NCBI GenBank assembly: GCA_049325335.1
Contig: JBMOMC010000002.1
Coordinates: 46,612 to 110,611 of the forward strand
DNA: 64,000 nt
Source of the DNA: Nitrospirota bacterium
GTDB taxonomy: Bacteria; Nitrospirota; Nitrospiria; 2-01-FULL-66-17
Direction: 5' to 3'
The notes under the pieces were generated by a model that did no database searches, was not told the origin of the DNA, and worked only from the letters and a program-made list of their open reading frames with translations. Every line of letters begins with the position of its first letter. Position 1 is the first letter of the stretch. Below are positions 7,947-55,582 of this stretch, piece after piece. Made by a program: the position numbers and the translations under genes.

Positions 7947-8063
7947 CTGGTTGTGCTCCTTTCCGCGAACGCTTCTAATAAGAAGCCGACACCCCGCGCG
8001 GGACGAGGTGTCGGTCAGTCGTCGGCTCTTGGATCGAGGCGCAGGGAGGTACGCCTCGACGAA

Positions 8064-10499: not shown

Positions 10500-10522
10500 G
10501 CGTGGTTCCTCCCGCGAACGGG

Positions 10523-12968: not shown

Positions 12969-12989
12969 CCGCCCTGCTTTGCAGGGCGG
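12969..12989. terminator. bidirectional hairpin between convergent CNNM and pabC genes
   Basis: CCGCCCTGC ttt GCAGGGCGG, perfect 9-bp stem with 3-nt loop. Confidence 0.5.
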
Positions 12990-20921: not shown

Positions 20922-20946
20922 AGGGCGGACCGATTCGGTCCGCCCT
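20922..20946 (+). terminator. hairpin terminator after lipoprotein gene
   Basis: AGGGCGGACCG att CGGTCCGCCCT, perfect 11-bp stem, followed by T-containing tract. Confidence 0.55.
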
Positions 20947-21043: not shown

Positions 21044-22540
21044 ATGGTTACGCCACGCCTCCGTTCCGCCGCCCCGCGCGGTCCGTTCCGCGCGTTCCAA
21101 CGTCTTCATCTCACCACCAAACTCCTCTTGATGATGGGAGTGCTGACCGTGCTATCGCTCGGTTCGGTCTTCCTGTTCTATGCGTATAATGAACGACTGC
21201 TCATTCGAGAGATTACCGAGAATGTGAACGATCTCTCATCCGCGATCCAGATCAGCGGCGAGGAATTGACCAGCCAGGCGTCCACCAACGAGGGCCGGCT
21301 TCAAGATTATGTGGGCCGGTTGACTAAAAAGGGCGTGCGGGAAATTTCCATCATCAGTAACTCCGAAAAGGTCATTGCCAGCTCAAACCCGACTCGCGTG
21401 GGCCAGAAAATCAACCCGCATCGCAAGGATTTGTTCATCACGGCGCGACTGGGCGAGGGCAACGCCGAAGGCGTTCAGACCCATAATCTCTTGGTGCCGA
21501 TTGTCGTGGACAAGCAACAGGTCGGCTACGCCCACATCATGTTGGTGATGGACGATTACGAGCGGCTGCTCCGGACGAATCTGATCAAACGGTTGATGGT
21601 GACGGGCGGGATCTTCGGGCTCGGAGCCGGACTGGTGCTGTTTTTGTCGTGGCGGTACACGCGTCCCATCTATCAGGTCGTTGCGGTCGCCAAGCAAGTG
21701 GCCGCGGGCAACCTGTCGGCCACGCTTCCTCAAGACCGCGGCGACGAAATCGGCGAGCTGATTGCCAGCGTGAACGAGATGGTCGATCGGCTCAGAGAGC
21801 AGCGCGCCTTGGAAGACCGGCTGCGCGAGGCCGAGCGGTTTTCGGCGTTGGGGCAGCTCGCGGCTGGGATTGCCCACGAGATCCGCAATCCACTGAATTT
21901 CATCAGCCTGTCCCTCGACCGCGTTCGAGATCTCGTCAAGCGGGAGGATGGCGGCCGATCCGATGAGATCCCGGCGCTCCTCGGGAGTATCAAGGGCGAG
22001 GTGTTCCGGCTCAATCGCCTGATCGATAGTTTTTTGAAGTACGGGCGTCCGGTGAAGCTGGCGCGGCAGTGGGTGTCGGTGCGCGCGCTGCTGGACGACG
22101 TGATCGCGCTGGTCCGCCCGAAAGCGGATGAAGCCCGCGTGGCGCTGTCGGTGGACGGGGAGTCCCTTCCGCCGTGTTTCGTGGATCCCGAGCAGATCAC
22201 CCGGTGCGTCATGAACGTGATGCTCAATGCCTTTCAGTCGATGCCGGACGGCGGGAGACTGCGCGTGGTCTTGGCCTTGGAGCCCGGGGGCGACGAGTCC
22301 GTCGGGCGGTTCGTGCGGCTGGCAATCGGGGACACCGGGGCCGGTATCGGAGAAGAGGACTTGTCCCGGGTGTTCGAACCGTATTTTACGACCAAGAAGC
22401 TGGGCATCGGTCTGGGACTAGCCCTGACCAAGCAGATTATCGAAGAACACGGCGGGACGATCGCGATTGCCAGCCGGATCGGCGAGGGAACCACGGTCTC
22501 GATGCGGGTGCCGGTCGGACGCGACGAGGCGCGCGGATGA
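21044..22540 (+). CDS. sensor histidine kinase (TM-HAMP-HisKA-HATPase)
   Basis: H-box HEIRNPLNFIS, N/G boxes (DTGAGIGEED, GIGLGL). Confidence 0.85.
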   Translation: MVTPRLRSAAPRGPFRAFQRLHLTTKLLLMMGVLTVLSLGSVFLFYAYNERLLIREITENVNDLSSAIQISGEELTSQASTNEGRLQDYVGRLTKKGVREISIISNSEKVIASSNPTRVGQKINPHRKDLFITARLGEGNAEGVQTHNLLVPIVVDKQQVGYAHIMLVMDDYERLLRTNLIKRLMVTGGIFGLGAGLVLFLSWRYTRPIYQVVAVAKQVAAGNLSATLPQDRGDEIGELIASVNEMVDRLREQRALEDRLREAERFSALGQLAAGIAHEIRNPLNFISLSLDRVRDLVKREDGGRSDEIPALLGSIKGEVFRLNRLIDSFLKYGRPVKLARQWVSVRALLDDVIALVRPKADEARVALSVDGESLPPCFVDPEQITRCVMNVMLNAFQSMPDGGRLRVVLALEPGGDESVGRFVRLAIGDTGAGIGEEDLSRVFEPYFTTKKLGIGLGLALTKQIIEEHGGTIAIASRIGEGTTVSMRVPVGRDEARG

Positions 22541-23901
22541 CGCGATCGCTGCTGGTGGTGGACGACGAGCGCTCGCAACGCGAGATTCTGGAGCGTATTC
22601 TTCGCGACGAGGGGTACGAGGTGCGCACCGCGGGGACGGCGCGGGAGGCGGCCTCGATTCAGCGCCGTGGTCCGTGTGACGTCGTCCTGAGCGACGTGAA
22701 GATGCCGGACACCGAGGGGGTGTCCGTGCTGAACGATCTGCTCGGCGCGGCGCCAAACTCGACCGTGATCCTGATGACCGCGCACGGAACGATCGACTCC
22801 GCGGTGGACGCGATGAAAAAGGGCGCGTTCGACTACCTGACGAAGCCGCTGGATAAGGATGAGTTGCTGATCACCATCGCGCGGGCGTTCGAGCGCGTGA
22901 GCCTCTTGCGGGAGAACCGGCGGCTGCGCCAAGAACTAGATGACCGCGTTCGGGTCGGAAGCCTCATCGGACACCACCCGTCGATGCAGGACATCATCAA
23001 GGTCATCAAGAAGGTGGCGCCCAGCGCGTCGACCGTCTTGATCGTGGGTGAGAGCGGCACCGGCAAAGAGCTCATTGCGCGCGCGATTCATGATGAGAGC
23101 CCCCGACGGGAGCTGCCGTTTCAGGCGATCAACTGCGCGGCCATTCCCGATCCGCTGATGGAAAGCGAACTGTTCGGCTATGAGAAGGGGGCGTTCTCCG
23201 GCGCGCAGACTCGCAGCATCGGCCTCTTCGAGGCGGCTCACCGCGGGACGATCTTCCTGGATGAGATCGGCGACCTCGGGCTCGGTCTGCAGGCGAAAAT
23301 CTTGCGCACGTTGCAGGAGCGGACGATTCGCCGGGTCGGGGGACAAGAAGAAGTCCCGATCGACGTTCGCGTGGTGGCGGCGACCAACAAAGACCTCGAA
23401 GCGGAGATCACCGCGGGTCGGTTCCGTCTGGATCTGTTCTATCGCCTCAACGTGGTGACGCTCCGGGTGCCGCCGCTTCGCGAGCGTACGGCGGACATCC
23501 CGTACCTGGTCGACGCGTTTCTTCACAAACACGAGGGTATGGACCGTGGCGCCAAGACCATCTCGAAAGACGCACTGCGCGTGCTGATGGACTATCCGTG
23601 GCCGGGCAACGTCCGTCAGTTGGCCGCGACCATCGAGCGCGCGGTACTGCTCTGCGAGAAAGATGAAATTCAGGTGGATGATCTCCCGCCGGAAATCCGT
23701 CGGCCGCCGTCTCCGCTTCCCACCCCGTTTCAACTCCCGGTCGGCGGCGTGTCGCTCGATCAGCTCGAACGATCCTTGATCGAACAGGCGATGGCTCAGA
23801 GTCATGGAGTGATCGCCAAGGCCGCCCGTCTCCTCGGGCTCTCATACAAGACGCTCCAATATCGGCTCGAGAAGTTGCGGGCCGCCGACCCGCCGACCTG
23901 A
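22537..23901 (+). CDS. sigma-54-dependent response regulator (NtrC family)
   Basis: Receiver domain, AAA+ domain with GESGTGKE and GAFSGA, C-terminal HTH; ATG overlaps kinase stop (ATGA). Confidence 0.9.
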   Translation: MTRSLLVVDDERSQREILERILRDEGYEVRTAGTAREAASIQRRGPCDVVLSDVKMPDTEGVSVLNDLLGAAPNSTVILMTAHGTIDSAVDAMKKGAFDYLTKPLDKDELLITIARAFERVSLLRENRRLRQELDDRVRVGSLIGHHPSMQDIIKVIKKVAPSASTVLIVGESGTGKELIARAIHDESPRRELPFQAINCAAIPDPLMESELFGYEKGAFSGAQTRSIGLFEAAHRGTIFLDEIGDLGLGLQAKILRTLQERTIRRVGGQEEVPIDVRVVAATNKDLEAEITAGRFRLDLFYRLNVVTLRVPPLRERTADIPYLVDAFLHKHEGMDRGAKTISKDALRVLMDYPWPGNVRQLAATIERAVLLCEKDEIQVDDLPPEIRRPPSPLPTPFQLPVGGVSLDQLERSLIEQAMAQSHGVIAKAARLLGLSYKTLQYRLEKLRAADPPT

Positions 23902-24014
23902 ACACCCCAAATGGGGTAGGCGGTCGCCGCATTTCGGGTATCGCGGCGGCCACGCGTTCGGGCCACGGTTTGCAACTCTCTCGATTGCCGAGTGTTTTAA
24001 CCCCGTCATGCTCC

Positions 24015-24030
24015 TGGCACGCCCTATGCT
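24015..24030 (+). promoter_or_regulatory. sigma-54 (-24/-12) promoter candidate
   Basis: TGGCACGcccTATGCT: GG and GC at correct 12-nt spacing, about 35 nt upstream of ATG 24066. Confidence 0.5.
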
Positions 24031-24065
24031 GTAGCGAGCTGTTTCAAGAAAGGAGGTGATGTCAG

Positions 24066-24329
24066 ATGAAGCAGTGGCTCAAGAGTGTGTGCGCGATGGC
24101 GGCGGTGTTGGTGTTCGCGGCGGCGGCGTATGCCGGGATGACCTCGGTCAGCGGCGAGGTCGCCAAGTACGAAGCCGGGAAGACCCTCTCGGTCAAAGAC
24201 GCCAAGGGCGCGGTGGCGATGTTCGAGATCTCCAAGGACACGAAGGTCGAAGGCGAGGTGAAAGTTGGCGCCAAGGTGTCCGTGGAGGCTGATGGAAACA
24301 AGGCCCATTCGGTCAAAGCGGCCAAATAA
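24066..24329 (+). CDS. small secreted protein of unknown function
   Basis: 87 aa, signal peptide (AAVLVFAAAAYA), strong AGGAGG RBS. Confidence 0.6.
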   Translation: MKQWLKSVCAMAAVLVFAAAAYAGMTSVSGEVAKYEAGKTLSVKDAKGAVAMFEISKDTKVEGEVKVGAKVSVEADGNKAHSVKAAK

Positions 24330-25326: not shown

Positions 25327-26952
25327 ATGGGCCGGCGCACACCCGCCAAGGGACGGTCGCGACGCCCGAGGGCGTCTCCACGGACGGCCGCGACGCCGTC
25401 GAAGCTCTCCACGCTCCTGGAACACCTCCCCGGCATGATGTATCGGTCGCGGGCCGACGGGCGTCACACGATCGAGTTCGCGAGCGAGGGGTGTTTCGAC
25501 TTGACCGGGTATCGCCCCGAGGCGTTGACGGCCGGGATGACGAGGCCGGATCTGGTCCATCCCGACGACCAATGGTCCGTGGAGCGCGCCATTGGAGACG
25601 CGGTGGGCGCCAAACGCGCGTTTCGGGTGGAGTACCGATTGCGGACCGCGTCCGGGGAGACGCGGTGGGTCTCCGAGCAGGGGCGGGGAGTGTACACCCG
25701 TCGCGGCGCGCTCACCGCGGTGGAAGGCTACGTCAGCGACATCACGGAGCAGAAATCGGCCGAGCGGTTGCTGGCCGAGCAGGCGATCCGCGATGCGCTG
25801 ACCGGTTTGTACAACCGCCGATTTTTCGACGAACGCATCGACATTGAGTTGGCCCGCGCCAGACGCAACGGCCACGCCGTCGCGTTTTTGATGTGCGATC
25901 TTGATCATTTTAAATCCATCAACGACAGCCGGGGGCATCAGATCGGCGACGAGGTGCTCAAGGCCGTGGCCAACGTGATCATGGCGGCCACGCGCGGCAG
26001 CGACATGGTCGTGCGGTGGGGGGGCGATGAAGTCGTCATCGTATTGTCCGAAACGAACGAAGCCGGCGGCCGTATCGTGGCCGACCGCATTCGGCGGGCG
26101 GTGTGTCGGCTGAGCGAGGCCCGGGACATCCGGTTCGACATCAGCATCGGGATCGCGGTGTTCCCGAGCCACGGCGAATCCGTGAGCCAGATCATTCGGC
26201 TCGCCGACCGCGCGCTGTATATCGCCAAAAAAAGCGGGGAGCGCATCCATGTCGGGGACGAACACTACCGGTTGGACGAACAGGCCATCAAAGTGGTGTT
26301 TCAGCCGATTGTGGACGTCTGGTCCGACCAGGTGTTGGGATACGAAGCCCTGAGCCGAGACCCCGAGGGCCGGTTGAGCGTGGCCGAGTTGTTTCGCAAG
26401 TACCACGTGGTGGGTCAACTCGACGAACTCAAAACGATCTGTTTCAAGGAGCAGTTGCGGGTCGCGGAGGAACTCCGATTGAACCGGATTTTCCTGAACG
26501 TGGATTTCCACGTCTTGGAACATCTGGAACCGCCGCCCAAGCCGGACGGCACCGACGTCATCGTCGAAATCTCCGAGCGCGACGCGCTCCACGACGTGGA
26601 GCGGCATTTGGAGATCGCGGTGAAGTGGCGCGCGTGCGGCTACAAGTTCGCCATCGACGATTTCGGCGCGGGCTTCGTGTCGCTGCCGTTCGTGGCGCGG
26701 CTGATGCCCGAGTACATCAAGATCGACCGATCGCTGGTGCTCCAAGCCGTGGCGTCGGACACATTTAAGGGGTTTTCCAAACATCTCCTAATCGCCTTGA
26801 GGACCTATGCCACCGAGGGGATCATCGCCGAGGGGATCGAAACGGAACGAGAACTGGCGGCGATGAAGGGGATCGGGATTTTTATCATCCAAGGGTTTCT
26901 TTTGGGGCGTCCCCGGGCATTGGGGCCGGACCAGTCCGCCGACGCCGCGTAG
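25327..26952 (+). CDS. PAS-GGDEF-EAL protein (variant GGDEV motif; EAL residues intact)
   Basis: PAS region, GGDEF domain with RWGGDEV, EAL domain with YEALSR, DDFGAGF, EGIETE, QGF. Confidence 0.85.
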   Translation: MGRRTPAKGRSRRPRASPRTAATPSKLSTLLEHLPGMMYRSRADGRHTIEFASEGCFDLTGYRPEALTAGMTRPDLVHPDDQWSVERAIGDAVGAKRAFRVEYRLRTASGETRWVSEQGRGVYTRRGALTAVEGYVSDITEQKSAERLLAEQAIRDALTGLYNRRFFDERIDIELARARRNGHAVAFLMCDLDHFKSINDSRGHQIGDEVLKAVANVIMAATRGSDMVVRWGGDEVVIVLSETNEAGGRIVADRIRRAVCRLSEARDIRFDISIGIAVFPSHGESVSQIIRLADRALYIAKKSGERIHVGDEHYRLDEQAIKVVFQPIVDVWSDQVLGYEALSRDPEGRLSVAELFRKYHVVGQLDELKTICFKEQLRVAEELRLNRIFLNVDFHVLEHLEPPPKPDGTDVIVEISERDALHDVERHLEIAVKWRACGYKFAIDDFGAGFVSLPFVARLMPEYIKIDRSLVLQAVASDTFKGFSKHLLIALRTYATEGIIAEGIETERELAAMKGIGIFIIQGFLLGRPRALGPDQSADAA

Positions 26953-29512: not shown

Positions 29513-30487
29513 ATGCAGGACGTCTGGGACTTCTATCGGACCGACCTGCGGGAGGTGGATCTCTCGATCGAAAAATACGTGGACTCCGGCGTTCCGCTCA
29601 TCAACCAAGTCGCACTCTATATCTTGACCAGCGGAGGCAAACGCATTCGCCCGCTGTTGCTGATGATTTCCGCCCGGGTCTCCGGGTTCGAGGGACCCTC
29701 GGACCAAACGGTCACACTGGCCAGCGCGGTCGAATACATCCACGCGGCCACCCTGTTGCACGACGACGTGTTGGACGACGCGACCCTGCGCCGCGGTAAA
29801 GACCCCGCGCACGCGGTGTGGGGGAATCGCGCGACGATTCTGGTCGGCGATTATCTCTATACCAAGGCCGTATGCCTGGCCGTGCAGATCGGCCTGTTGG
29901 AGGTGGATTCGATCCTGGCCAACGCGTGCCGGGTCATGGCCGAGGGCGAGGCGTTGCAATTACTGCACTGCGGGGACCTGTCGTTGACCGATGCGGCCTA
30001 TCTAAAGATCGTCGAGTGTAAAACCGCGGCGTTGCTGTCGGCCGCGTGCCGATTGGGCGGGGTCATCAGCGGCGCGCCGTGGCGGACCAAAGACGCGCTC
30101 GGCCAGTTCGGCATGCACCTGGGTATCGCGTATCAAGTGGCCGACGATACGCTCGATTACGTGGCGGATCAGGGGCGCTTGGGCAAGGCGCTCGGCAAGG
30201 ATCTCTCCGAAGGCAAAATCACCCTTCCGTTGCTGCACCTGTTGCGGTCGGTCAACGGCACCGAGCGCCGCCTGGTTGAAACCGTGGTGCGCGACGGGCA
30301 AGCCTCGGCCGAGCAGCTTCGGGACATCCTCGATCTGATGCAGACCTACGGTTCCACCACGTACGCCATGGACGTGGCGCGCCGGCACATCACCCTCGCC
30401 CAGCAACAGTTGGAAGCCTTCGACAATGGTCCGCATCGACAAGCCTTGATGGCGGTCGCGGATTACGTGGTCGCGCGGGATCACTGA
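29513..30487 (+). CDS. ispB: polyprenyl diphosphate synthase (octa/hepta/solanesyl type)
   Basis: Two Asp-rich motifs (LLHDDVLDD, VADDTLDY). Confidence 0.85.
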   Translation: MQDVWDFYRTDLREVDLSIEKYVDSGVPLINQVALYILTSGGKRIRPLLLMISARVSGFEGPSDQTVTLASAVEYIHAATLLHDDVLDDATLRRGKDPAHAVWGNRATILVGDYLYTKAVCLAVQIGLLEVDSILANACRVMAEGEALQLLHCGDLSLTDAAYLKIVECKTAALLSAACRLGGVISGAPWRTKDALGQFGMHLGIAYQVADDTLDYVADQGRLGKALGKDLSEGKITLPLLHLLRSVNGTERRLVETVVRDGQASAEQLRDILDLMQTYGSTTYAMDVARRHITLAQQQLEAFDNGPHRQALMAVADYVVARDH

Positions 30488-30569
30488 TCGGTTGCCCGTT
30501 GTTGTCGGTGGTCCCTTCCTACCAGCCCTCCTATCTGAACGCGAACCAGTGCCTCGACGAGGCCTGCTC

Positions 30570-30800
30570 ATGATCGGTCCAATCGTGCTGGGCCTCGTGC
30601 TGGCGCTTTCGCCAGCCGCATGTACGTCTTCCGAACGCGCCGCGCAAGAAGCTTACGAGCTCGCGCAGTTCGAAGAGAAACAGGGAAACGCGGCCCACGC
30701 CCGGCAACTCTATCAACAGATCGTCACGAAGCACCCCGACACGCCCTGGGCCGAAAAAGCCCAAGCGCGGCTAGGCGAGCTTCCTCCGGCCCAGCCCTAG
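30570..30800 (+). CDS. small lipoprotein with TPR-like helical hairpin
   Basis: Signal peptide MIGPIVLGLVLALSPAAC; ORF-track N-terminus lacks signal features. Confidence 0.4.
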   Translation: MIGPIVLGLVLALSPAACTSSERAAQEAYELAQFEEKQGNAAHARQLYQQIVTKHPDTPWAEKAQARLGELPPAQP

Positions 30801-30846
30801 TTCCTGCTAGAAACACGCTCCTGCGGCGAGTAGGGTGACTGGGAAT

Positions 30847-31416
30847 CTAATACGCGTCCGCGTCACATCGCACTAATCTCACGTCGACTTCCCGCTCCAC
30901 ATATGTCCATTCCACCGTGCTACGGAGCGCTGCGACCAGCTTGTCGAACGCCGCACCGTCCTCGGCCGCATACTCGAACCAGGTCAGAAAATCGAACGGC
31001 TCGTTGTCGCCCAGATCCCGGCAATGGTGCAGCTTGCGCGCAATCGCGGGCAGGAAACCCATGCCGATCCGGATGTGCTGGGACTGCGCTTCAAAGATCG
31101 CTCGTCGTTCGTCCTGCGGTAGGTTCCACCACGCGGCGGATTTTTTGATCGGGATCAGCGCGGCGTGCGTGGCCTCGAATCGGCCCAGCGGAGGCTGATT
31201 CGAGGCCAAGAGGCGTTTCTCCACCCGCTCCACGTAACGCTCGTTGCTGGTGATCCCGCGAAGCGCCCACGAACCGCTCCGCAACGGTTGCTGCGACAGG
31301 CTGTCGACCACGGTGACGTACCCCACCGGGTCCAAGCCATGCCCCTTCACCGCGTCCATTGTAAGGACGCGCCATTGACCCGTCGTACCTCCGATAAATG
31401 TTGACCGTCGAGACAT
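30847..31416 (-). CDS. chlorite dismutase family protein, short form
   Basis: 190 aa from ATG 31416; AAWWNLPQDERRAIFE and KLHHCRDLGDNEPFDFLTWFEY pattern typical of short-clade Cld-like haem proteins. Confidence 0.55.
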   Translation of the reverse strand: MSRRSTFIGGTTGQWRVLTMDAVKGHGLDPVGYVTVVDSLSQQPLRSGSWALRGITSNERYVERVEKRLLASNQPPLGRFEATHAALIPIKKSAAWWNLPQDERRAIFEAQSQHIRIGMGFLPAIARKLHHCRDLGDNEPFDFLTWFEYAAEDGAAFDKLVAALRSTVEWTYVEREVDVRLVRCDADAY

Positions 31417-31589
31417 CGCCACTCCGTCGAAATGTTCGATCGAAATACCCAATTTGCAACTTCCGGACCGAGTCGGGATGACTCGGGATTGGCCGAGCGG
31501 TGAAATGTTACCGAGGGAATGACGCGTTGAAGCTTGAACCAACCATCAAGGGTAGACAACTTTGTCGCCCGTCCGTCATTTCTGTCGGT

Positions 31590-31609
31590 CTCACGGCGAT
31601 CGCCGTGAG
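31590..31609. terminator. perfect 20-bp palindrome downstream of tonB
   Basis: CTCACGGCGATCGCCGTGAG; could be terminator hairpin or operator. Confidence 0.45.
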
Positions 31610-31623
31610 AAGGGTGAGGCCGT

Positions 31624-32586
31624 TTACACCGGGAAGAACACGAACGGGTAGGTGACGATGATGACGCCGTCATACAGGTGGGGGAACTTCCACATCTTGA
31701 TCCGGCTGGCGAGGGCTTGTTCCAGCGGGGCGTGATCCATGGTGGTGGAAATGATGCGCGTTTCAATGACCTTGCCGGTGGCGTCGATGGAAAACTCCAC
31801 GGAAATGGTGCCCTTGAGCGTGGGGTTGGCACGGAGTTCTTTGTTGTAGAGGTAGATCAGGCCGTTCTTGTACTGCTCCACCACGCGCGCGATGGCGTCG
31901 TAATCAATCGACGCGCCTGTCCCCGACCCACCGCCTCTCAGCCGGACGCCCACGCCGTCGCCGAGACGGTGCCCGCCGCTGCCCGCTCCGCCGGCGCCGG
32001 TCTCGGTTGGAATCCGGGCCAAGGCGACTTGTTCGCCGTGGGCGAGTCTGGTGCGGTCGCCGCTGCCCAGGGATTTGGATTTGGCCACGGTCTTGTCCAC
32101 CAATGCGGTATCGTGCGACAGGGGTTTAGTAGCAATGGCGCGGGTGCTCTTGGCGGTCGGGGCCGTGATCAGATCCGACGATGACAAGGCCTGGGTCAGG
32201 CGATCGCTCTCGATGATGTCGCTGAGTCCGCCTTTTTCTTCTTCTTCGATCAACGAGGCGAGCAGGCCGCTCTGCCGCACGATCTCCCGTGTTTGCTGGG
32301 CCGAGGGTTTTGGCGGGGCCGCCGGCTTCTTGTCGGCTTTGGGTTTGTCGGCGTCCTTCTTTTCCGGGGCGACGTCCGCCACGTTAGGTTTCTCCGGTGT
32401 GGCTACGATGGGCGGAGGTTCCAAGATCAGCTTCGCCACACGTTCGGGCAGATCCTGAATGTCGGGGTGCTCGGGAACAGGCATGCGGATGATGGTCACG
32501 AGCGCCGCGGCCAACAAATAGAAGCCCAGCGAGACACGCAGGGTCTTCTTAAACAGCTCATCGTCTGAATGCGGTACGATGATCAT
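31624..32586 (-). CDS. TonB-family energy transducer
   Basis: N-terminal TM anchor, Pro/Lys/Ala-rich linker, TonB-type C-terminal domain. Confidence 0.75.
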   Translation of the reverse strand: MIIVPHSDDELFKKTLRVSLGFYLLAAALVTIIRMPVPEHPDIQDLPERVAKLILEPPPIVATPEKPNVADVAPEKKDADKPKADKKPAAPPKPSAQQTREIVRQSGLLASLIEEEEKGGLSDIIESDRLTQALSSSDLITAPTAKSTRAIATKPLSHDTALVDKTVAKSKSLGSGDRTRLAHGEQVALARIPTETGAGGAGSGGHRLGDGVGVRLRGGGSGTGASIDYDAIARVVEQYKNGLIYLYNKELRANPTLKGTISVEFSIDATGKVIETRIISTTMDHAPLEQALASRIKMWKFPHLYDGVIIVTYPFVFFPV

Positions 32587-32598
32587 CTACGGTCTCCG

Positions 32599-33096
32599 TT
32601 AACCGATCTGCTCTTTTTGCACCACCGCGAGCGCGATGTGCGGAAACTCCGCCTGCGCGCAGGTGGCCATGAGTTTTTTGAGCAACTGAAACGGAATCTT
32701 GCGATCCCCCATAATCGTGATGTTCCCGGTGAACGTGACCGACGCGGTCTTTTGCGCCATGGCGCGGGTGCGGTCTCCCAACCGAGTCAGCTCCTGCGTG
32801 AGCGGTCCCAGGATAGTGTCCGGTTGCGCGATGGCTTCCGCCACGCCCATGACGCGTTTCCCGTCCACGAAGATCTCCCTGTCCGTCACCAACAAGGTGA
32901 CGGTCGGACGCGGGGCCTTTTCCGCGGTGGAGGCTGGCAGCTTGAGGCCTTCGGAGTCTGGTAACGCTTCTTCACCCGCAAGATGAACCAGGAGAAACAA
33001 TAGCAGGATGGTGAAAATGTCCATCAAGCTGATGAGGCTCAACGACACGACGGCGTCGCGGCCTCGTCGATTATGGAGCCGGTCGCGAAACTTCAT
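32599..33096 (-). CDS. ExbD/TolR-family protein
   Basis: Single TM helix and ExbD-like periplasmic domain. Confidence 0.8.
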   Translation of the reverse strand: MKFRDRLHNRRGRDAVVSLSLISLMDIFTILLLFLLVHLAGEEALPDSEGLKLPASTAEKAPRPTVTLLVTDREIFVDGKRVMGVAEAIAQPDTILGPLTQELTRLGDRTRAMAQKTASVTFTGNITIMGDRKIPFQLLKKLMATCAQAEFPHIALAVVQKEQIG

Positions 33097-33581
33097 ACGC
33101 GTTTAACCTCGCCGATTGAAATGTCCGGAAACAACTCCTGGGACGGGCCGGCCTTCCGGCACACGTCCATGACTTCGACCAAGGACTCGTACGCCACGTC
33201 GGGCTCGCTCAATAGGATGACCGACTTTTCCTGCGGGTAGGAGGTTTTTACCCGTTGCAACAGCGCAGTCAGCCCAGCGAGGTCGTACGCGCCGTTTTGC
33301 AGCGCGAGCCGATTCGGAGCCAACCCGCTGCCTTGTACGCTGATTCCGTCCCGGTGCAAGGCCACGATCAAGCTGAACGGTTCTTGCGCGGGCGGCGCGG
33401 CGGCGTGCGCGCTCGATGCCGTGGGCAGGTTGAGCTCCAACACCGCGAGCCGGGAAAACACCACGCCCGTCAGCAAGAACGGGATCAACACCACCATGAG
33501 ATTCATGAATGGCGTGATGTTCAGCGAGTTGTCGCCTTGCCCGAACCGGCGAGCCCGACGTAGCCGCACGCTATTTCGCAT
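33093..33581 (-). CDS. ExbD/TolR-family protein, second copy
   Basis: NITPFMNLMVVLIPFLL TM helix; 4-nt overlap with downstream exbD. Confidence 0.8.
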   Translation of the reverse strand: MRNSVRLRRARRFGQGDNSLNITPFMNLMVVLIPFLLTGVVFSRLAVLELNLPTASSAHAAAPPAQEPFSLIVALHRDGISVQGSGLAPNRLALQNGAYDLAGLTALLQRVKTSYPQEKSVILLSEPDVAYESLVEVMDVCRKAGPSQELFPDISIGEVKRV

Positions 33582-34293
33582 GCACGGTCCCTTTCATCCC
33601 CACCGCTCGGCGCGGCTGGAGCATTTCCGAGCCGTTGGAGTACGCGTCCGCCGCGTCACTCTTCGCCATCTGGCCGGCCAGATTCACCAGCCTCAGCGCG
33701 TACCCTTCCACGGTGTCGATAACCCGGTTGGTGCGGCTCTGGAGAAATCCGTGCACCAACATGAGCGGCACCGCCACGATCAATCCGAACGCGGTGGTGT
33801 TCATGGCTACTGAAATCCCCTTAGCCAACAACGTGGCCTTCTGGGCGGGGTCGGCCATCGACACCGCGGTAAAGGCCTGGATCAACCCTACGATGGTGCC
33901 GAGGAGTCCGAGCAGGGTGGCGACGTTGGCCAGATTCGGCAGGTAGTTGAGCCGTGCCTCCAGCCGCGGAATGACCTGCATCATGGCCTCGTCCACGCCG
34001 CCTTGGGCGTCTTCCCGGGTGAACGAGCCTTTCATGCCGCGAATTCCCCCCGCGAGGACCTGGTGGAGCGGGCGGTTGGACTGCGTGCAGTGACGCGCTG
34101 CTTCGTCCATGCGCCGGCCGTGGATGCTCGGCGCAATTTGCCCCCACAGCCGTTCGCCGTTGGTCCCGGCCCGCGCGATCACCACGATGCGTTCCACCAC
34201 GATCGCGGTTGACACAGCCAGCACCAGGAGGATCGGATACATGAAGAATCCTCCGGCCTGGAAAAAGTTGATATATGTTGCCACGCTGGTCAT
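33571..34293 (-). CDS. MotA/TolQ/ExbB proton-channel protein
   Basis: Three TM helices and the conserved C-terminal channel pattern. Confidence 0.85.
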   Translation of the reverse strand: MTSVATYINFFQAGGFFMYPILLVLAVSTAIVVERIVVIARAGTNGERLWGQIAPSIHGRRMDEAARHCTQSNRPLHQVLAGGIRGMKGSFTREDAQGGVDEAMMQVIPRLEARLNYLPNLANVATLLGLLGTIVGLIQAFTAVSMADPAQKATLLAKGISVAMNTTAFGLIVAVPLMLVHGFLQSRTNRVIDTVEGYALRLVNLAGQMAKSDAADAYSNGSEMLQPRRAVGMKGTVHAK

Positions 34294-34625
34294 TGGTTCC
34301 CTCCTCCTGTTCCGGATATCGGTGTGCGCAAAAGCTGGCGTTGAAAACGCGCTCGATCTACGGGTTCGAGTAGTTCTTGTTCAAAACTCCGGCGAAGCGG
34401 CATGTCGTTGTCCACCGCCGACAGCGTATTCTTCCACGGGACCACGTACACCACGTGCGGTTGCTCCAAGGTGCCCTGGATCTCGGTGCCTTCCATCAGA
34501 AAGCGTTCGACGTTCGCGTCCGTCCCGACGGACTCGGCTCCGGCGGGCGCGGTGTCCGCCGCTGAGGCCAGTCCGACAGCGAGCAGCACGGTTGCGGGTA
34601 TGAGCGACCCGATCAACCGCCTCAT
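34290..34625 (-). CDS. hypothetical periplasmic protein
   Basis: Signal peptide; 4-nt overlaps with both neighbours. Confidence 0.4.
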   Translation of the reverse strand: MRRLIGSLIPATVLLAVGLASAADTAPAGAESVGTDANVERFLMEGTEIQGTLEQPHVVYVVPWKNTLSAVDNDMPLRRSFEQELLEPVDRARFQRQLLRTPISGTGGGNQ

Positions 34626-35263
34626 GGCGTCTCCTTGACGCGGTCCACCCGCTTCTGGAGCGCGGCGATCCAGATCGCCACCTCCTCTTGCCCCTCTCCG
34701 CCCGCAGCCAGATAGGTCTGATAGTGCTCGATCGCCTTGTCGGGTTCATTGAGATACAGATCGTAGAGCACTGCCAGGTTGTAGTCGGCGTCTCGGAAAT
34801 CCGGCGCGGCATTGAGCGCGCGGCGGTATGCGTCTTCGGCCTGGCGAAACTTGCCTTGCTCGCGCAATGCGAGCCCCATGTTGTAGTAGGCTTCGGGGTA
34901 TTGGGGTTGGATCTTGATCGCCTGTTGGTACGCGGCTACGGCTTCCGGCAGCAGTCCCATGCGCTTGTAGACCACGCCGAGATTGTTGTGGAACACGCTC
35001 ACGTGCGGGTAGCTGGTCCGCAAGTTTTCGAACGCGGCCCTGGCTTCCTTGAGCTTTCCGTTCTCAATCAGGCTCGTACCTTTTTGGAAGCGTAGGAGAA
35101 CCTGGTCAAGTTTTTGTGCCTCAGCGGCACGCGATTCGTCGCTTCGCGCGGTGGTCTGAGTCGGGATCGGCGCGGGCGGCGGCAACATCGCGCGGGTGCA
35201 AGCCGTCAGCGCCGCGACAAGGACGAGCAACAGACGCATGAATTTCTGGGGACGGGTACTCAT
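34622..35263 (-). CDS. TPR-repeat lipoprotein
   Basis: Signal peptide with LTAC lipobox; at least three TPR units. Confidence 0.75.
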   Translation of the reverse strand: MSTRPQKFMRLLLVLVAALTACTRAMLPPPAPIPTQTTARSDESRAAEAQKLDQVLLRFQKGTSLIENGKLKEARAAFENLRTSYPHVSVFHNNLGVVYKRMGLLPEAVAAYQQAIKIQPQYPEAYYNMGLALREQGKFRQAEDAYRRALNAAPDFRDADYNLAVLYDLYLNEPDKAIEHYQTYLAAGGEGQEEVAIWIAALQKRVDRVKETP

Positions 35264-38103
35264 CGTTCAGCCGCCAAGAGCCTGTCAATGATTGACGAGA
35301 GCGGTTTAGCCGTCAACGTCTCGACATCGATATTCGAAGTGAGTCGCTCGGTTCGCTCTGGACGTTTGTAGAGCGCGGGCCGCAATTCCGCCAGCCGGTC
35401 GTAACTCTTCTTGACCCACTCGTTGTAGGCTCCCGGTTGGCTCGACGCCCGCTGCACGTTGCTGGCATACGCCTGAATCGCCTTTTCTTCAAACGGGAAC
35501 GCTTTCTCTTCCAGTTGGAACTTGTACTCGTCCACCTGTTCCGGGGTGAGTTTCTTCGGGAGTTCGGCTTCGAGCAGCGCGGTCTTGAAGTGTTCGAACA
35601 CCTCGCCCAGGCGGTACGCGGACGTGGCAACCACCTCCTGGTATCGCGTCTCCGCGGCCCGTGTGTAGAGCGTGATCGTCTTGTCCAACGCCTGAGTCTT
35701 ATTTTTGAGGTTCTTTTTGAACGGCTCCCTCAGGGCGATTTTTTTAAGCGACCGGAACGACTCCTCGGCCTGGTGGAACACGGCTTGCGCCGCGAACTGG
35801 GTGCCGGGTGCCTGTTGTTCCACCTCCGTGAACAGCTTGAGGGCCTCCATGGTCTTCCCCTGGCGCTGCCGGATCATGGCCATCTTCCACCAACCTTCAG
35901 GCGCATCCGGGTGTTTGGGGAACCGCTCGGTGAATTGCGCGAAGACCGCGTAGCTCTTGTCCCATTGGGAGGCCTTTTCGTAATCGACACCGGCGGTCCA
36001 GAGAATCTGTGGCGCCTGCGCGTGGTGTTGGGGTAACGTGGCCGCGGCTTCGAAAGCCTCGGCGGCTTCGCCCCACTGTTCACCTTGTTCGTAAATCAAG
36101 GCGGTTTGGAGCGCGGCTTTTGCGCCGAGGTCGGACGTGGGGTCGCGCTGGACCAGTTGCTGGTAGGCGGCGATCGCCTCGCGCGGCTGCTTGAGCGTTT
36201 CGTACAGACTCGCCGCCTCGAACAACGCGTCGGCCGCCAAGGGGCTCTCCGGGGCTTCGCGCGAGATGGCGGCAAACGTCTTGGCCGCGTCGCTGAGCCG
36301 ATTGGCCTTCTTGTGCTGCTCTCCCTGCTTGTACATGGCCGCGGCCAACAGATCGTTCATCTCGCGCTGCTGGGCCTTGTCCGCTGTCGGGAGGAGCGAC
36401 AGGGTCAGCGCGTACGCCGCGCGAGCCTCGTCGAAACGGCCTTGCCGCATATAGGAGTGGGCGATCAACTTCTGCGCGGTGGCGGTGCCCGTGAAATTGG
36501 GATACCGGGACAAGACCTGCCCCAACATCTCGCGCGCCTCGGCATCGCGTTGCTGGTCGAACAGGATCTCGCCGGACTTGAGCAAGACCGTGGGCGTCCG
36601 GGCATCCTTCGGGAACTGATCCGCGAACCGTTTCGTCAACGCGACGAATCGCTCGTGGCCCTTCTTGTCCTGAAGTTTTTCCGCGGCCACGATGGCGGAG
36701 TACGCGGGTTCTTTGTCCGCCGCGACTCCGGGATAGCTGTAGGCCACGGCTTCGTACGCCGCGGCCGCCTGCGCATACTCCTGCAACGCCATCAGGGATT
36801 CGGCGTACAGCAGATGGACTTCCCGCGTGTCCTTTTCCTCAGGGAACTCCGCGAGGAACTGGCGATACCATCCGACTGCTTCCCGATACTGCTCGGCCTG
36901 TTTGCTCTCCCGCGCAGCGGCATGCGCGGACACCCCGAGCCGGTACAGACTGTCTTTGACCAAGGGGCGCGAGCGGGCTCGACCGGCCTCGTCGGTGGCC
37001 TTGTACCAGACGCTGGTGCTCAGGTACCCGTTCACGAGTGCGATTCTGGCGTCACGCGCGGCTTCGGGATCCCTCTCCTTCTCGTACGCCTCGATGACAT
37101 ACGACGCGAAGATGGGCGCCATGTCGTGCATGGGATGCTGTTGTACGAACGTCCGGTAGGTCGCAATCGCCTGCTGCCGGTTCCCCTCACCCAGATATTG
37201 GTTCCCCATCATGAGGTAGAGATCTTTCTCGTAGAGCGCGATCCCGTGTTGTTTGAAATAGTCGGCCATGGGTTGCGGCCCGCCCAACCCCCGGAATGAA
37301 ATAGCCACGTACGTCAGCGCTTCCCACACGAGGGACCCGGAGTCGGCGGCCGTGGCCGGTTGTCCGGCGGTCTTCTTGTCCACGAGGTACAAGAACTGAT
37401 CGACCGCGTGCGGGTATGCGCGGAGATTGAAGTAGGTCCACCCGAGTTTGTACCGGGCCCGGTCTTGAAGGACCGGATCGTCGAGCCCAATCGTCTGCTC
37501 ATAGGCGTCAGCCGCCTGCTCGAATCGACGGCCGTCAAAGTCGGATTCGCCGATACGGAAATATGCTTCCTGGAGGTGGGGACTGGTCGGGTATTCCGCG
37601 ACCAACTTACTGAGCAACGGCTGGGCCAGGTCCCGACGCCCGGTCTCCGAGTAGGCACGGGCCAGACCGTACAGCACGTCGTCCTGCGCATGAAATGTCG
37701 GATCGGTTTCGAGCAACGTCCGGTAGGTCGTGATCGCGTCGTCGTAATTGACCAGCGGCGGGGGGCCTTGTGGGTCCTTCTCATACGCCTCCATCGCCGA
37801 GAGAAATTGCTGGTGCGCGCGTTCAAGATACAGATCCCCGAGCCGTTTGAGTGCCTCGGATCGCAGGACGGGGTCCACGGTTCCGTAATCCTTGAGAAAG
37901 CCTTCATACCCTGTGATCACGTCGGCTTTGCGAACCACGGGCAACGGCGCGCTCGAAGCCGCGTTTACGGCCTCCGAGTCCACGCGCAACACGCCGTGAT
38001 CCTTCGCGCTTGCGCAGGCCGTCAGCAGGCATGTGAGGCCGGCGAGAGACCACGTGGTCGCGGTGTGAAAAACACGGTGTTTCATTGGCTCGCCATATCC
38101 CAC
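35260..38103 (-). CDS. large TPR-repeat protein (947 aa), secreted
   Basis: Signal peptide then TPR-like helical repeats throughout. Confidence 0.8.
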   Translation of the reverse strand: MGYGEPMKHRVFHTATTWSLAGLTCLLTACASAKDHGVLRVDSEAVNAASSAPLPVVRKADVITGYEGFLKDYGTVDPVLRSEALKRLGDLYLERAHQQFLSAMEAYEKDPQGPPPLVNYDDAITTYRTLLETDPTFHAQDDVLYGLARAYSETGRRDLAQPLLSKLVAEYPTSPHLQEAYFRIGESDFDGRRFEQAADAYEQTIGLDDPVLQDRARYKLGWTYFNLRAYPHAVDQFLYLVDKKTAGQPATAADSGSLVWEALTYVAISFRGLGGPQPMADYFKQHGIALYEKDLYLMMGNQYLGEGNRQQAIATYRTFVQQHPMHDMAPIFASYVIEAYEKERDPEAARDARIALVNGYLSTSVWYKATDEAGRARSRPLVKDSLYRLGVSAHAAARESKQAEQYREAVGWYRQFLAEFPEEKDTREVHLLYAESLMALQEYAQAAAAYEAVAYSYPGVAADKEPAYSAIVAAEKLQDKKGHERFVALTKRFADQFPKDARTPTVLLKSGEILFDQQRDAEAREMLGQVLSRYPNFTGTATAQKLIAHSYMRQGRFDEARAAYALTLSLLPTADKAQQREMNDLLAAAMYKQGEQHKKANRLSDAAKTFAAISREAPESPLAADALFEAASLYETLKQPREAIAAYQQLVQRDPTSDLGAKAALQTALIYEQGEQWGEAAEAFEAAATLPQHHAQAPQILWTAGVDYEKASQWDKSYAVFAQFTERFPKHPDAPEGWWKMAMIRQRQGKTMEALKLFTEVEQQAPGTQFAAQAVFHQAEESFRSLKKIALREPFKKNLKNKTQALDKTITLYTRAAETRYQEVVATSAYRLGEVFEHFKTALLEAELPKKLTPEQVDEYKFQLEEKAFPFEEKAIQAYASNVQRASSQPGAYNEWVKKSYDRLAELRPALYKRPERTERLTSNIDVETLTAKPLSSIIDRLLAAER

Positions 38104-40010
38104 AGACGAATTTGGTTGAGCCGCGCCGCGGCGGCCATGGTTTCGATCCGCCCGTGGCGTTGGTCCACGGCTTTGACCAACAGGGCTTGCAGCGGCGGGA
38201 GGAGTTCGGCCCGCGCCGCGGTTAATCGGCGTTGGTGCGCAACCAAATCGCGTCTGATGTCACGGATGTCGCTGCGGAACGTGCCGAGTCGGTTTTCAAT
38301 GCCCGCAATGGATTCCACCAACTTCCGTTGATCGCGATCCGCCTGCTCAAGGTCCTCGTGCAATCGGTTTAACGCACGTTGAAGGTCGTCGCGTCGTCCC
38401 GGGACGTCGGTGGCAATGGTCCATACACGCTCGCCATAGAGCACATCGAGCCAGCGATCGGTCGTTTGCCACTGCGCCCGAAGGTCGTGGAGCCGGTCAC
38501 GCACGGCAGGTGTTCCGTCGTCCATCCGTCGGATGGATTCTCCGACCGCACGGCTCTTCCGCCGAGCGTCTTCCAGCTCGTCGAGCGCGGGGCGCTCAGC
38601 GCCCGATGCCCAGTTCCGCGCGGTCTCGTGCCGGACAGCCTGCTCGATCGCGGTTTGCAACACAGCCTCTCGCTGCGTGAGCGGGGCCACGGGGCTTTCA
38701 TCGAGAAAGCCTTGCACAATGGGCACGCGCTCGCGAAAAATCGCTTGTCGATGCTCGAGCATCACGTCGAAGACGGCCGTGTCCTCGAGTTTTCGGGCCA
38801 GGTAGTGCTCAAGGGCCGCGAGTTCGCCGTATTGTTTGACCCAGTATCGGAGTCCGTCGTCTTCCAGGATCGGAGCGAGGGGACTCCGCATCACTGCGTG
38901 GAAGTCCGTAAACAGCGCGTCCAATTGATCGCGATCTCGGATCAGGGATTTGATCGCAAGAAGGTTCTGCTGTGTCCGCTGGTAGGTGTCCAGGGCCGTG
39001 ACATACGATTCGAGCGCCTTGGCGTGTTGTCCCAGGCGGTCGTAGCAATGGCCGATCGTGGTGAGGGCTTCCAGCGCATAAGGATGGTCGGGGGCCGCGC
39101 GTACGAGCGCTAAAAACGCGGCAAGCGACTCGTTGTACCGCTTGCGATACAAATGAGCCCAACCTAAGCCGAACGTCGCGTCGGGGTAGAACCGGCTGCT
39201 CGAAGGCACGGAGGCCAAGGTCGGGACCGCGTTGTCGTACCACCCGGTCTCGGTGAACAACAATCCCAATGTCACTCGGCTCTTCTCGGCAAGGGCTTGG
39301 CGTTCCGCGTCGTCCTCGGGGGTGAACGCGCCCGCGCCTTCGAGCAGGCGGATCGCGGCCGACACGTCGGCCAGTTGCATCCGGGATTTGGCCGACGCCA
39401 GCGCGGCGAACGGGCGGTACGCGCTGGAAGTCGGAACCGTCGCGAACGCGCGCAGCGATTCGTCGAATTGCCCCAGCGCGTAATGGCTCATTCCGGCGAA
39501 GTAGGCGGCTTGGTCAAGCGATGCGAATGTCGGATCGCGATCAAGTCGCTTGTACGTGGACACCGCAGCCTCGTACAAGGATCGCGAGTATTGGAGCCGT
39601 TCGATCAGCAGCAACACCTGGTTACGGTCGTTTCCCGGTGGGAATGTGGCAACGAGCTGATCAAAGATGGTTCTGGCGGACCGGTGAAGGCCCCATGCCA
39701 GATAGAGGCTGCCCCGAAGCAGGCGGGTCTCGTTGAGCAGGCTGGGCTCGTTCTGAACCCCCTTTTCCATCAGCTTCAGTCGAGTCGCGGACGTCAGGTA
39801 GTCCTCCAGAAAGAAGTGGTAGTAGGCTTCTTTCTTAAGCGAGGCCACGGTGGCGGGGGATACGGGGGAGACCGGCCATGCCTCGGCCGTGGTCGCTCCG
39901 ACCTGGAGGGTGTCGGAAGCCGCAGCAAGGGGCGTGGTGCCATCCCCGGCAAAGGCCGGGAACGCCCACGCGCCGAGACTCAGGACAAGGATGTTAATGC
40001 CACGCTTCAT
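38082..40010 (-). CDS. TPR-repeat protein (642 aa), secreted
   Basis: Signal peptide; TPR-like repeats and coiled-coil C-terminal region. Confidence 0.7.
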   Translation of the reverse strand: MKRGINILVLSLGAWAFPAFAGDGTTPLAAASDTLQVGATTAEAWPVSPVSPATVASLKKEAYYHFFLEDYLTSATRLKLMEKGVQNEPSLLNETRLLRGSLYLAWGLHRSARTIFDQLVATFPPGNDRNQVLLLIERLQYSRSLYEAAVSTYKRLDRDPTFASLDQAAYFAGMSHYALGQFDESLRAFATVPTSSAYRPFAALASAKSRMQLADVSAAIRLLEGAGAFTPEDDAERQALAEKSRVTLGLLFTETGWYDNAVPTLASVPSSSRFYPDATFGLGWAHLYRKRYNESLAAFLALVRAAPDHPYALEALTTIGHCYDRLGQHAKALESYVTALDTYQRTQQNLLAIKSLIRDRDQLDALFTDFHAVMRSPLAPILEDDGLRYWVKQYGELAALEHYLARKLEDTAVFDVMLEHRQAIFRERVPIVQGFLDESPVAPLTQREAVLQTAIEQAVRHETARNWASGAERPALDELEDARRKSRAVGESIRRMDDGTPAVRDRLHDLRAQWQTTDRWLDVLYGERVWTIATDVPGRRDDLQRALNRLHEDLEQADRDQRKLVESIAGIENRLGTFRSDIRDIRRDLVAHQRRLTAARAELLPPLQALLVKAVDQRHGRIETMAAAARLNQIRLWDMASQ

Positions 40011-47745: not shown

Positions 47746-47942
47746 AGCGTCCTCGTTTCTCGGGGTGAAGAGTGGGTACATGGCTCGTCGCATAGGTGCA
47801 AATCGCATGCGAGGCTCGGTGTGGAGCTCGATCGCGGCCGCGGGGGCGAAACGCTCGATTGCCGGCTTGTCGTTGTTCGAACATGGACATCGGATTCAAA
47901 AATGGTGATGACCCTTCCATGGGTAATTACCATCCGGTGATG

Positions 47943-49310: not shown

Positions 49311-49654
49311 GAATGTGTGAGAGGCGGTAGCAAGATAACACAGCCCTGTGGCGTGTCTATCCAATGACGGGGTGAGCGGCGGACGTGCGCCTGAAGCGTG
49401 GCGGTGTCGAATGTGCCGCGGTGTCGCGATCAACACCCGTCGCGGCTTAATGCCAGAACAATGCCACCGTGTGTCGTTGATCTCGGCGTGGAAAACGCGG
49501 TGGGTTCATCAGAATATGCCGAAAATCCGTCGCGAGTGCCGGGTTTTGGCGTCACTGTTTCGCCGGGCGCTCTCCCCGTGAAATGGGAGGGGATCTGTTC
49601 GCGTCGGGTGATTCAAGAAGGAGGCGGTGAGTCGTCGCGACGTGTCATGATAAG

Positions 49655-49684
49655 GGCCCGTCGGTGGAGTGTCCGACGGGCCCT
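49655..49684 (-). terminator. hairpin downstream of yceI-like gene
   Basis: GGGCCCGTCGG / 8-nt loop / CCGACGGGCCC. Confidence 0.45.
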
Positions 49685-49717
49685 TGGGCCACGGGTTGGA
49701 ACCGAGAGGGGAGTGGA

Positions 49718-52133: not shown

Positions 52134-52251
52134 CGGGGTCCGCCGGCGCGCGATTTGACGGCCTGACGGGCGGGCGGTACCTTTCCGGTACGCGGGTATC
52201 CGAGATGGGGATGTGTCGCGCGGAGAACGGCTCCGCGCAGGGAGGAACCAC

Positions 52252-55140: not shown

Positions 55141-55527
55141 ATGCAAAACCGCATCGTGATCCATTTCGGCGACGGCCGCATCGTCAAAGGCAGCACCGGG
55201 GACTTTTTCCCGAACAAACAGTGGTTTCACTTGGTGGAGAAGGACAGCGGCAAGTCCAATCGCATCGACGTCGCCAAGCTCAAGGGGATTTTTTTCGTCA
55301 AAGACTACGACGGCCAACCGGAATACCGGCATTGCAACGACGTGGAGCGATCCGGGCTTGGGAAACGGGTGAAAGTCAGTTTTAAAGACGGGGAATCGAT
55401 CGTAGGGTATACCTCGGGGTTTTCTCCGACCAAACCGGGTTTTTTCCTCTTTCCCGCGGATGGGAACGGGAACACGGAAAAAATCTTTGTGGTCAGCGTG
55501 GCCACCGAGGAAATCAGTTTTTTGTGA
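55141..55527 (+). CDS. hypothetical protein
   Basis: ATG 55141 with GGGAGGAG RBS; beta-rich, no recognised domain. Confidence 0.45.
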   Translation: MQNRIVIHFGDGRIVKGSTGDFFPNKQWFHLVEKDSGKSNRIDVAKLKGIFFVKDYDGQPEYRHCNDVERSGLGKRVKVSFKDGESIVGYTSGFSPTKPGFFLFPADGNGNTEKIFVVSVATEEISFL

Positions 55528-55582
55528 GAGACCTCGCGGCCGGACGCCCTGCACCCCGCGCTCGAATGCACCATCGGGCGTC

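Follow-up and report, generated by a model that had tools for sequence, protein, structure and literature searches.

In the 64,000-nucleotide stretch of Nitrospirota contig JBMOMC010000002.1 which we analysed (the window), a gene encoding a chlorite dismutase (Cld) lies on the minus strand behind a TonB-like operon, with a perfect palindrome between the two. We consider it probable (roughly 0.65) that this gene, cld, encodes an ordinary Cld which guards the cell against chlorite of its own making, and that it stands outside the TonB-like operon, with its own sigma-54 promoter at 31469-31456 and enhancer dyads at 31554-31587. What is new here is the conserved regulatory module, which offers a testable lead on the debated role of these proteins; the enzyme is an ordinary one, and the palindrome and the link to the operon are incidental.

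A conserved module upstream of cld

We aligned the DNA upstream of cld from nine lineages and from an outgroup with 63% Cld identity, which is also annotated as Nitrospirota. Across these 10 lineages (63-100% Cld identity) two invariant islands were found in upstream DNA which could otherwise not be aligned. The first has the consensus ctcGGcCCgnnAGTTGCA, of the form GGYCC-N6-TTGCA, and lies 21-100 nucleotides (nt) ahead of the ATG. The second has the consensus ACAGAAnTGaCGG-N5-CGACAAAGTTGTCG and consists of two dyads, CGACA-N4-TGTCG, 20 bp apart. The features of the locus, in window coordinates, are:

30847..31416, minus strand: cld coding sequence including the stop codon; 189 aa, lineage-2a (clade 2, dimeric-type, cytoplasmic) chlorite dismutase
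31422..31425, minus strand: Shine-Dalgarno-like GGAG, 5 nt ahead of the cld ATG, read from the sequence
31455..31470, minus strand: predicted sigma-54 (-24/-12) promoter CGGTCCGGAAGTTGCA, with GG at 31469-31468 and GC at 31457-31456
31471..31553, minus strand: spacer from the dyads to the promoter, free in sequence and constrained in length
31554..31567, minus strand: dyad B CGACAAAGTTGTCT, enhancer-like
31574..31587, minus strand: dyad A CGACAGAAATGACG, enhancer-like, 20 bp (two helical turns) upstream of dyad B
31589..31610, no strand: 22-bp perfect palindrome TCTCACGGCGATCGCCGTGAGA
31624..32586, minus strand: TonB-like protein of 320 aa, last gene of a TPR/ExbB/ExbD/ExbD cluster and not part of the cld unit

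The string GG-N8-TTGCA is invariant and in the same register in all 10 lineages, with the GG and GC exactly 10 nt apart, and the ACA and TGT of the dyads are likewise invariant columns of the alignment. Among lineages the 51-nt module is 55-90% identical. The ungapped identity of the spacer between distant lineages is 0.20-0.45 versus a random expectation of 0.27. The spacer is 83-84 nt long in eight lineages and 73 nt in two, and the distance from dyad B to the -24 GG is 98-99 bp in the eight and 88 bp in the two, which places the two groups one helical turn apart. The distance from promoter to ATG varies between 21 and 100 nt. In 2.7 Mb of strand sequence the combination of dyads and promoter was found only upstream of the cld of this clade, and the pattern GGYCCGNNNGTTGCA, derived from close relatives within the clade, occurs once in the window versus 0.06 expected. 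The module is present irrespective of what lies upstream, be it the TonB-like gene, divergent PAP2, GT87 or something else.

Sigma-54 promoters have the consensus TGGCAC-N5-TTGCW, with GG at -24 and GC at -12. Because a spacer of free sequence and of fixed, helically phased length joins the dyads to a GG-N10-GC element, the anatomy of the module suggests an enhancer-dependent sigma-54 promoter, and the positions of the dyads (98-99 or 88 bp from the GG) are helically phased and fall within the range expected of upstream sites (approximately 80-150 bp). Transcription by sigma-54 polymerase would then start near 31444, giving a 5' untranslated region of approximately 28 nt. A signal would be sensed by an enhancer-binding protein encoded away from cld, which would bind both dyads; from approximately 98 bp upstream and on the same helical face, this protein would loop the DNA over the spacer and drive the ATP-dependent opening of the sigma-54 holoenzyme at 31469-31456. 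The product would be a cytoplasmic, dimeric haem b Cld converting chlorite to chloride and O2, and its expression would be induced by the signal rather than constitutive.

We also examined more distant clade-2 cld loci, of which 15 out of 152 (9.9%) have an in-register sigma-54 match of at least 10/12 within 150 nt upstream, compared to 0.5% of control windows. These 15 loci fall into at least six sequence groups, one of them from Comamonadaceae. Predicted sigma-54 control of cld is recurrent in these data, rather than universal.

Cld genes of the Comamonadaceae type carry an almost perfect sigma-54 promoter, TGGCACTGTAGTTGCA, 29-33 nt ahead of the ATG (loci L017, L045, L048, L066, L128, L037, L039 and L063). 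The element runs over the stop codon of the preceding gene, and the identical stretch of 20 nt persists at loci with a different upstream gene, so that this putative promoter seems to travel with cld into different contexts.

An RpoN-dependent pcrA promoter with PcrR/S/P has been described in the perchlorate-reduction islands of Azospira suillum (PMC3884062). There, as proposed here, sigma-54 and an enhancer-binding protein control (per)chlorate-related genes. However, the motif in that system stands ahead of pcrABCD and not of cld, its regulator is a neighbouring gene and the Cld there belongs to clade 1, whereas in the window the motif stands ahead of a solitary clade-2 cld and no regulator is close by. 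We found no literature linking sigma-54 or RpoN to clade-2 cld in a search which was incomplete, and we do not claim priority. Published neighbourhood analyses covered genes and not promoters, and a large study of cld neighbourhoods mentions neither promoters nor TonB (PMC9751292).

The Cld protein and its start codon

By every sequence criterion the window protein is a bona fide lineage-2a (clade 2) Cld, which bears out its initial annotation as a short-form Cld-like haem protein. It matches the Pfam family PF06778 (Chlor_dismutase) at 39.9 bits (cut-off 25), and no NCBIfam model matches it. When we searched the PDB with phmmer, the top matches were three solved dimeric Clds: 9GTJ (1.8e-70), 3QPI (5.6e-61) and 5K8Z (8.5e-54). 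Clade-1 pentameric Clds, including NdCld, matched only at approximately 1e-12, and no chain of coproheme decarboxylase (ChdC, or HemQ) matched at E ≤ 0.01.

Functional positions were taken from the description of the Pseudomonas aeruginosa enzyme PaCld (PMC12525007) and mapped on to the window protein, in which 17 of the 17 positions of PaCld and of NwCld from Nitrobacter winogradskyi are identical: R60, Y61, V62, R64, Q74, I88, K92, W96, W97, E103, R104, R105, H114, L122, R127, D134 and E169. The alignment check proposed with the initial annotation, for a distal Arg and a proximal His, was positive for both. The proximal haem ligand H114 aligns exactly with PaCld H115 and NwCld H114. The distal catalytic R127 aligns with PaCld R128 and with R127 of both NwCld and CCld (from Cyanothece PCC7425), and its hydrogen-bond partner Q74 (PaCld Q75) is present. 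The proximal hydrogen-bond network E169/K92 matches PaCld E170/K93 and NwCld E167/K92, and the propionate binders R60, Y61 and V62 are conserved (R61 and Y62 in PaCld being the first two). H114, R127, K92 and E169 are invariant across 13 homologues. At the subunit interface, R64/E103 and R60/D134 match the PaCld salt bridges R65-E104' and R61-D135'. The clade-2-specific Arg is also present (R104, PaCld R105) and forms part of an Arg pair, R104/R105.

An AlphaFold model built from a 13-sequence alignment (pLDDT 73.6, pTM 0.74) found its best fold matches among the dimeric Clds 9GTJ, 5NKV and 3QPI (TM-score 0.79-0.87), compared to 0.5-0.58 for clade-1 Clds and approximately 0.5, at 14-18% identity, for ChdC. 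From its length class, interface residues and fold matches the protein is predicted to be of the dimeric type, and we infer from its sequence that it is enzymatically active. The possibility that it is another member of the superfamily, either a ChdC/HemQ or a haem protein acting on another substrate, is hardly credible. It is true that the superfamily fold is common to both and that the substrate of clade-2 Clds in organisms which do not reduce (per)chlorate has been openly questioned (PMC4973843). However, the distal Arg of functional Clds is present, as is their complete proximal network of His, Glu and Lys, the three closest solved relatives of the protein are all demonstrated Clds, and it resembles ChdC neither in sequence nor, beyond the low TM-score above, in fold. 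ChdC is recognised by a two-domain subunit of approximately 250 aa, the lack of a distal Arg and sequence similarity to ChdC, a description which does not fit the window protein.

PaCld (9GTJ) is 61% identical over 181 aligned residues and of the same length class, and the model fits it at a TM-score of 0.83-0.85. It differs in coming from another phylum, and the Pseudomonas-type gene lacks the upstream sigma-54 motif and sits in what is apparently a widely transferred unit. NwCld (3QPI, 57% identity) and CCld (5K8Z, approximately 50%) share the numbering of H114 and R127, the dimeric type and the absence of a signal peptide; they lack a 2-residue "DN" insertion which the window Cld has in common with PaCld, and neither a Nitrobacter cld locus (L075) nor cyanobacterial cld loci have the promoter module. 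NdCld of "Ca. Nitrospira defluvii" (3NN1) comes from the same phylum and has the same catalytic His/Arg chemistry, but it is a clade-1, pentameric, periplasmic protein of approximately 240 aa with an extra N-terminal domain (E = 3e-12 and TM-score 0.53-0.57 versus the window protein).

The mechanically called open reading frame spanning cld (30847..31542, minus strand) begins at a TTG and encodes 231 aa. We rejected this extension, as it is not conserved and relatives have frame-breaking indels in it. The true start is the ATG at 31416: it is kept in all aligned relatives, it is preceded by the GGAG at 31425-31422, upstream indels among relatives are not multiples of three, and the segment of residues 3-19, which in alignment matches the first strands of the crystal structures, includes the invariant residues F7, G9, G10, G13, W15 and R16. 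The protein is therefore 189 aa long and not 190 aa as initially annotated, although the family had been correctly assigned. Its N-terminus, MSRRSTFIGG, aligns to a structural beta-strand of 9GTJ and 3QPI and is not followed by a hydrophobic stretch, and there is no signal peptide. A Tat signal in "SRRSTF" was considered and rejected on the same grounds.

The gene is already annotated in GenBank, where the enzyme is unremarkable apart from its start: from residue 20 to residue 189 the protein is identical to MFZ5861951.1, a 170-aa product named "chlorite dismutase family protein [Nitrospirota bacterium]" which begins at M20, 19 codons after the true start. An orthologue of 171 aa, MFZ5876340.1, is annotated with the same late start. 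Both starts are probably mis-called, dropping 19 residues which form a conserved strand of the crystal structures.

The genome closest to the window cld is a Nitrospirota metagenome-assembled genome (MAG) with 93% amino acid identity. It should be noted that our scan of metagenome contigs yielded only relatives of ≤ 63% identity, and closer relatives were located by exact protein look-up. Beyond the close relatives, identity falls to approximately 60% for thousands of clade-2 Clds from Proteobacteria, Verrucomicrobia, Cyanobacteria and others, a drop across many phyla which fits the extensive horizontal transfer of cld described previously (PMC9751292). Clds which are 61% identical to the query over residues 2-182 recur in Pseudomonas, Stutzerimonas, Marinobacter, Alcanivorax, Atopomonas and a "Clostridiales" MAG (L005, L007-L009, L011-L014, L016, L019-L021, L023, L028, L029 and many metagenome loci). 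In three assemblies the contig carrying such a gene is only approximately 4.85 kb long, and the upstream DNA of L005 and L008 is identical; these genes look like the widely transferred mobile cld of the same study (PMC9751292).

The TonB-like operon, the palindrome and competing explanations

Upstream of cld is a conserved cluster (31624-40010, minus strand) encoding two large TPR proteins, a 213-aa TPR protein, a 111-aa open reading frame, ExbB, two ExbD proteins and the TonB-like protein. The last of these matches NCBIfam NF033768 (AgmX/PglI C-terminal domain) at 84 bits (cut-off 40) and falls below threshold for Pfam TonB_C (19 bits versus a cut-off of 24.6); it also partly resembles the Myxococcus gliding proteins GltG and GltJ. 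On the other side of cld, genes for a small TPR lipoprotein and a polyprenyl synthase converge on it.

The TonB-like gene and cld are separated by 207 nt. Relatives at 78-93% identity have the same gene order, ExbB-ExbD-ExbD-TonB-like-cld, while in those at 63-75% identity cld is preceded by divergent PAP2, GT87 or other genes. Since the latter keep the promoter module in spite of their different upstream genes, the adjacency of TonB-like gene and cld is incidental, a matter of lineage history and not of function. Cld had been described initially as following the TonB envelope operon; this is right as to order and to strand, both being on the minus strand, but a functional link does not follow from an adjacency which is lineage-specific. 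No Rfam family matched at its gathering score in the window, nor at E ≤ 1 in 30700-31750, and a structured RNA in the region between the two genes is not supported (z = -0.9).

This region also contains the palindrome, which was initially annotated as 20 bp long (CTCACGGCGATCGCCGTGAG, 31590-31609) and as a possible terminator or operator. The palindrome is real, but it extends by 1 bp on each side to 22 bp. It begins 13 nt past the stop codon of the TonB-like gene and abuts dyad A. There is one copy in the window even when 3 mismatches are allowed (0 in 100 shuffles), and it was not found in the 172 cld loci examined. As RNA it would form a very stable hairpin (dG -17.7 kcal/mol, z = -3.9). 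An intrinsic terminator combines a GC-rich hairpin with a U-run, and here the hairpin is present and the U-run absent: the palindrome is followed by ACCGACAGAAAUGACGG, and a terminator scan called no site. At the same position in the closest relatives, which keep the gene order, folding was no better than in shuffled sequence (z = -1.0 to +0.2), and the palindrome is not conserved in L001, L171, L081 or L169. The relative at 93% identity reads CTCCGGCCCTCGCCGTGAG, and the palindrome is degraded or absent in every relative. With neither fold nor sequence kept, no U-run and no terminator call, its proposed function as terminator or operator is not borne out.

It should also be noted that the window contains 13 perfect hairpins with stems of ≥ 9 bp, compared to 3.5 ± 1.9 in shuffles, and because of this general excess the palindrome is one of a class rather than singular. 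Examples of GC-rich hairpins lie at 12969-12989, 20922-20946 and 49652-49685, the last having the longest stem (13 bp). Those which look intergenic may be the usual U-less 3'-end structures of this genome. We read the palindrome as a lineage-specific hairpin without a conserved role, not an operator, and possibly as the U-less 3'-end structure of the upstream operon. Its core, GCGATCGC, is that of the cyanobacterial HIP1 repeat, which we rejected as an explanation: there are 9 copies versus 6.4 ± 2.3 expected, and 16 of 100 shuffles reach 9, so the repeat is not enriched.

The competing explanations differ in what they make of these same elements. If cld were transcribed by read-through as the final gene of the TonB-like/ExbBD operon, the palindrome would be a partial, U-less terminator or attenuator determining its level; the common strand, the 207-nt gap, the stable hairpin and the gene order kept in relatives at 78-93% identity agree with this. 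It is nevertheless rather unlikely, as cld must have a promoter of its own in the relatives at 63-75% identity, where the upstream genes are unrelated or divergent, the hairpin is not conserved, no terminator is called there, and the conserved promoter-like module sits between the TonB-like gene and cld. That the palindrome is instead an operator at which a dimeric protein regulates cld or the TonB-like operon is suggested by its perfect 22-bp dyad symmetry, its uniqueness in the window and its position against dyad A. Its decay in all relatives, that at 93% identity among them, its absence from the 172 loci and the general excess of such hairpins in the window make this highly improbable. Turning to the module itself, TTGCA(A) might belong to an ordinary sigma-70 promoter as its -35 box, and the dyads might bind a classical activator or repressor. 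TTGCAA does resemble TTGACA, and dyad sites are typical of sigma-70 regulators too, but we give this explanation little credence: in five lineages the ATG lies 21-26 nt past TTGCA, a distance which fits a -12 element and is too short to hold a 17-nt spacer together with a -10 box, a start site and a ribosome-binding site. In addition, the GG exactly 10 nt upstream is invariant, helically phased sites 100 bp away are a signature of enhancer-dependent promoters, and no sigma-70-like site was found in 30400-32000.

Several observations weigh against a sigma-54 promoter. The window copy matches the textbook consensus at only 9 of 12 positions (8-10 across the 10 lineages) and the bare match is not significant; searching the window for the consensus at 3 mismatches gave 96 sites versus 101 expected, which is uninformative. 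The case for sigma-54 comes from conservation in 10 related lineages, which are all apparently Nitrospirota, and neither the module nor such a site was found at other Nitrospirota, Nitrobacter, cyanobacterial and Pseudomonas-type clade-2 cld loci. GAFTGA-type motif scans of 168 loci found no enhancer-binding protein beside cld, and the one encoded in the window has an obvious target of its own and different upstream repeats. Read-through from the TonB-like operon also competes, at the low probability given above, as a source of the cld transcript.

Physiological role, candidate activators and other features of the window

The biochemistry of clade-2 Clds is well understood, but what they do in bacteria without (per)chlorate respiration is a matter of recognised debate (PMC4973843, PMC9751292). 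In genomes, cytoplasmic Clds are found in association with NasA, NarG and Nxr-like enzymes, and from this association adventitious chlorate reduction is favoured as the explanation for them (PMC9751292). By analogy, the most likely job of the window Cld is the removal of chlorite made within the cell when nitrite oxidoreductase (NXR) or nitrate reductases accidentally reduce chlorate, and these enzymes would be the physiological source of chlorite. A conserved, phased module would mean that Cld is induced on demand by a dedicated sensor, and its concrete DNA motif can serve in the search for the activator and for genes under the same control. Should these genes include NXR, Nar or Nas, this would support the role of Cld as a guard against self-made chlorite; more generally, if cld belongs to a sigma-54 regulon, other copies of the enhancer would reveal the purpose of clade-2 Clds in organisms without (per)chlorate respiration.

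Between the two dyads lies a core of the form TGW-N10-ACA, which in the lineages L170 and L172 is exactly TGT-N10-ACA. The enhancer bound by NifA is TGT-N10-ACA. Because of this core we propose, tentatively and as a rather doubtful possibility, that the cytoplasmic Cld belongs to a sigma-54 regulon with a possibly NifA-like activator and is co-induced with a nitrogen-oxyanion enzyme which makes chlorite from chlorate. The nxrAB loci of Nitrospira are reported to be flanked by sigma-54 regulators, including a NifA-like one (PMC6606698, PMC7522533), and the same phylum uses sigma-54 activators for the likeliest chlorite-making enzyme. The comparison differs in that the window has neither an nxr nor a NifA-like gene, and that most lineages have TGA and not TGT.

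The window does encode one NtrC-family sigma-54 response regulator (22537-23901, plus strand; PF00158 at 1e-69), 7 kb from cld, which follows a Cache/HAMP histidine kinase (21044-22540, plus strand). A near-consensus sigma-54 promoter, TGGCACGCCCTATGCT, at 24015-24030 follows the regulator, 36 nt ahead of the next gene, which encodes a small secreted protein of 87 aa with a signal peptide (24066-24329, plus strand). The layout of kinase, regulator and secreted protein (21044-24329) resembles the ZraSR/ZraP envelope-stress system. As the window holds an enhancer-binding protein with a near-consensus promoter, the organism appears to have sigma-54 machinery, although rpoN itself is not in the window. 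This regulator was considered as the activator of cld and is unlikely to be so: the near-consensus promoter is its own target, the repeats upstream of that promoter are unrelated to the cld dyads, and the cld dyad motif was found nowhere near it.

Some further features of the window are worthy of note. An 831-aa protein (45313-47808, minus strand) combines a hydrazine-synthase-alpha middle domain (PF18582, 8e-20) with a cytochrome c domain at its C-terminus, and its matches to the hydrazine synthase alpha model are only partial. Within a sulfate-assimilation cluster, at 6783-10565 on the minus strand, an 833-aa nitrite/sulfite reductase with an unusual C-terminal fusion to a TusA sulfurtransferase adjoins an ATP sulfurylase. 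Four GGDEF or GGDEF-EAL proteins are encoded in the 64 kb (25327-26952, 50479-51321, 52213-53526 and 55460-56566), and PAS-GGDEF-EAL genes are found near cld in two relatives (L083 and L172).

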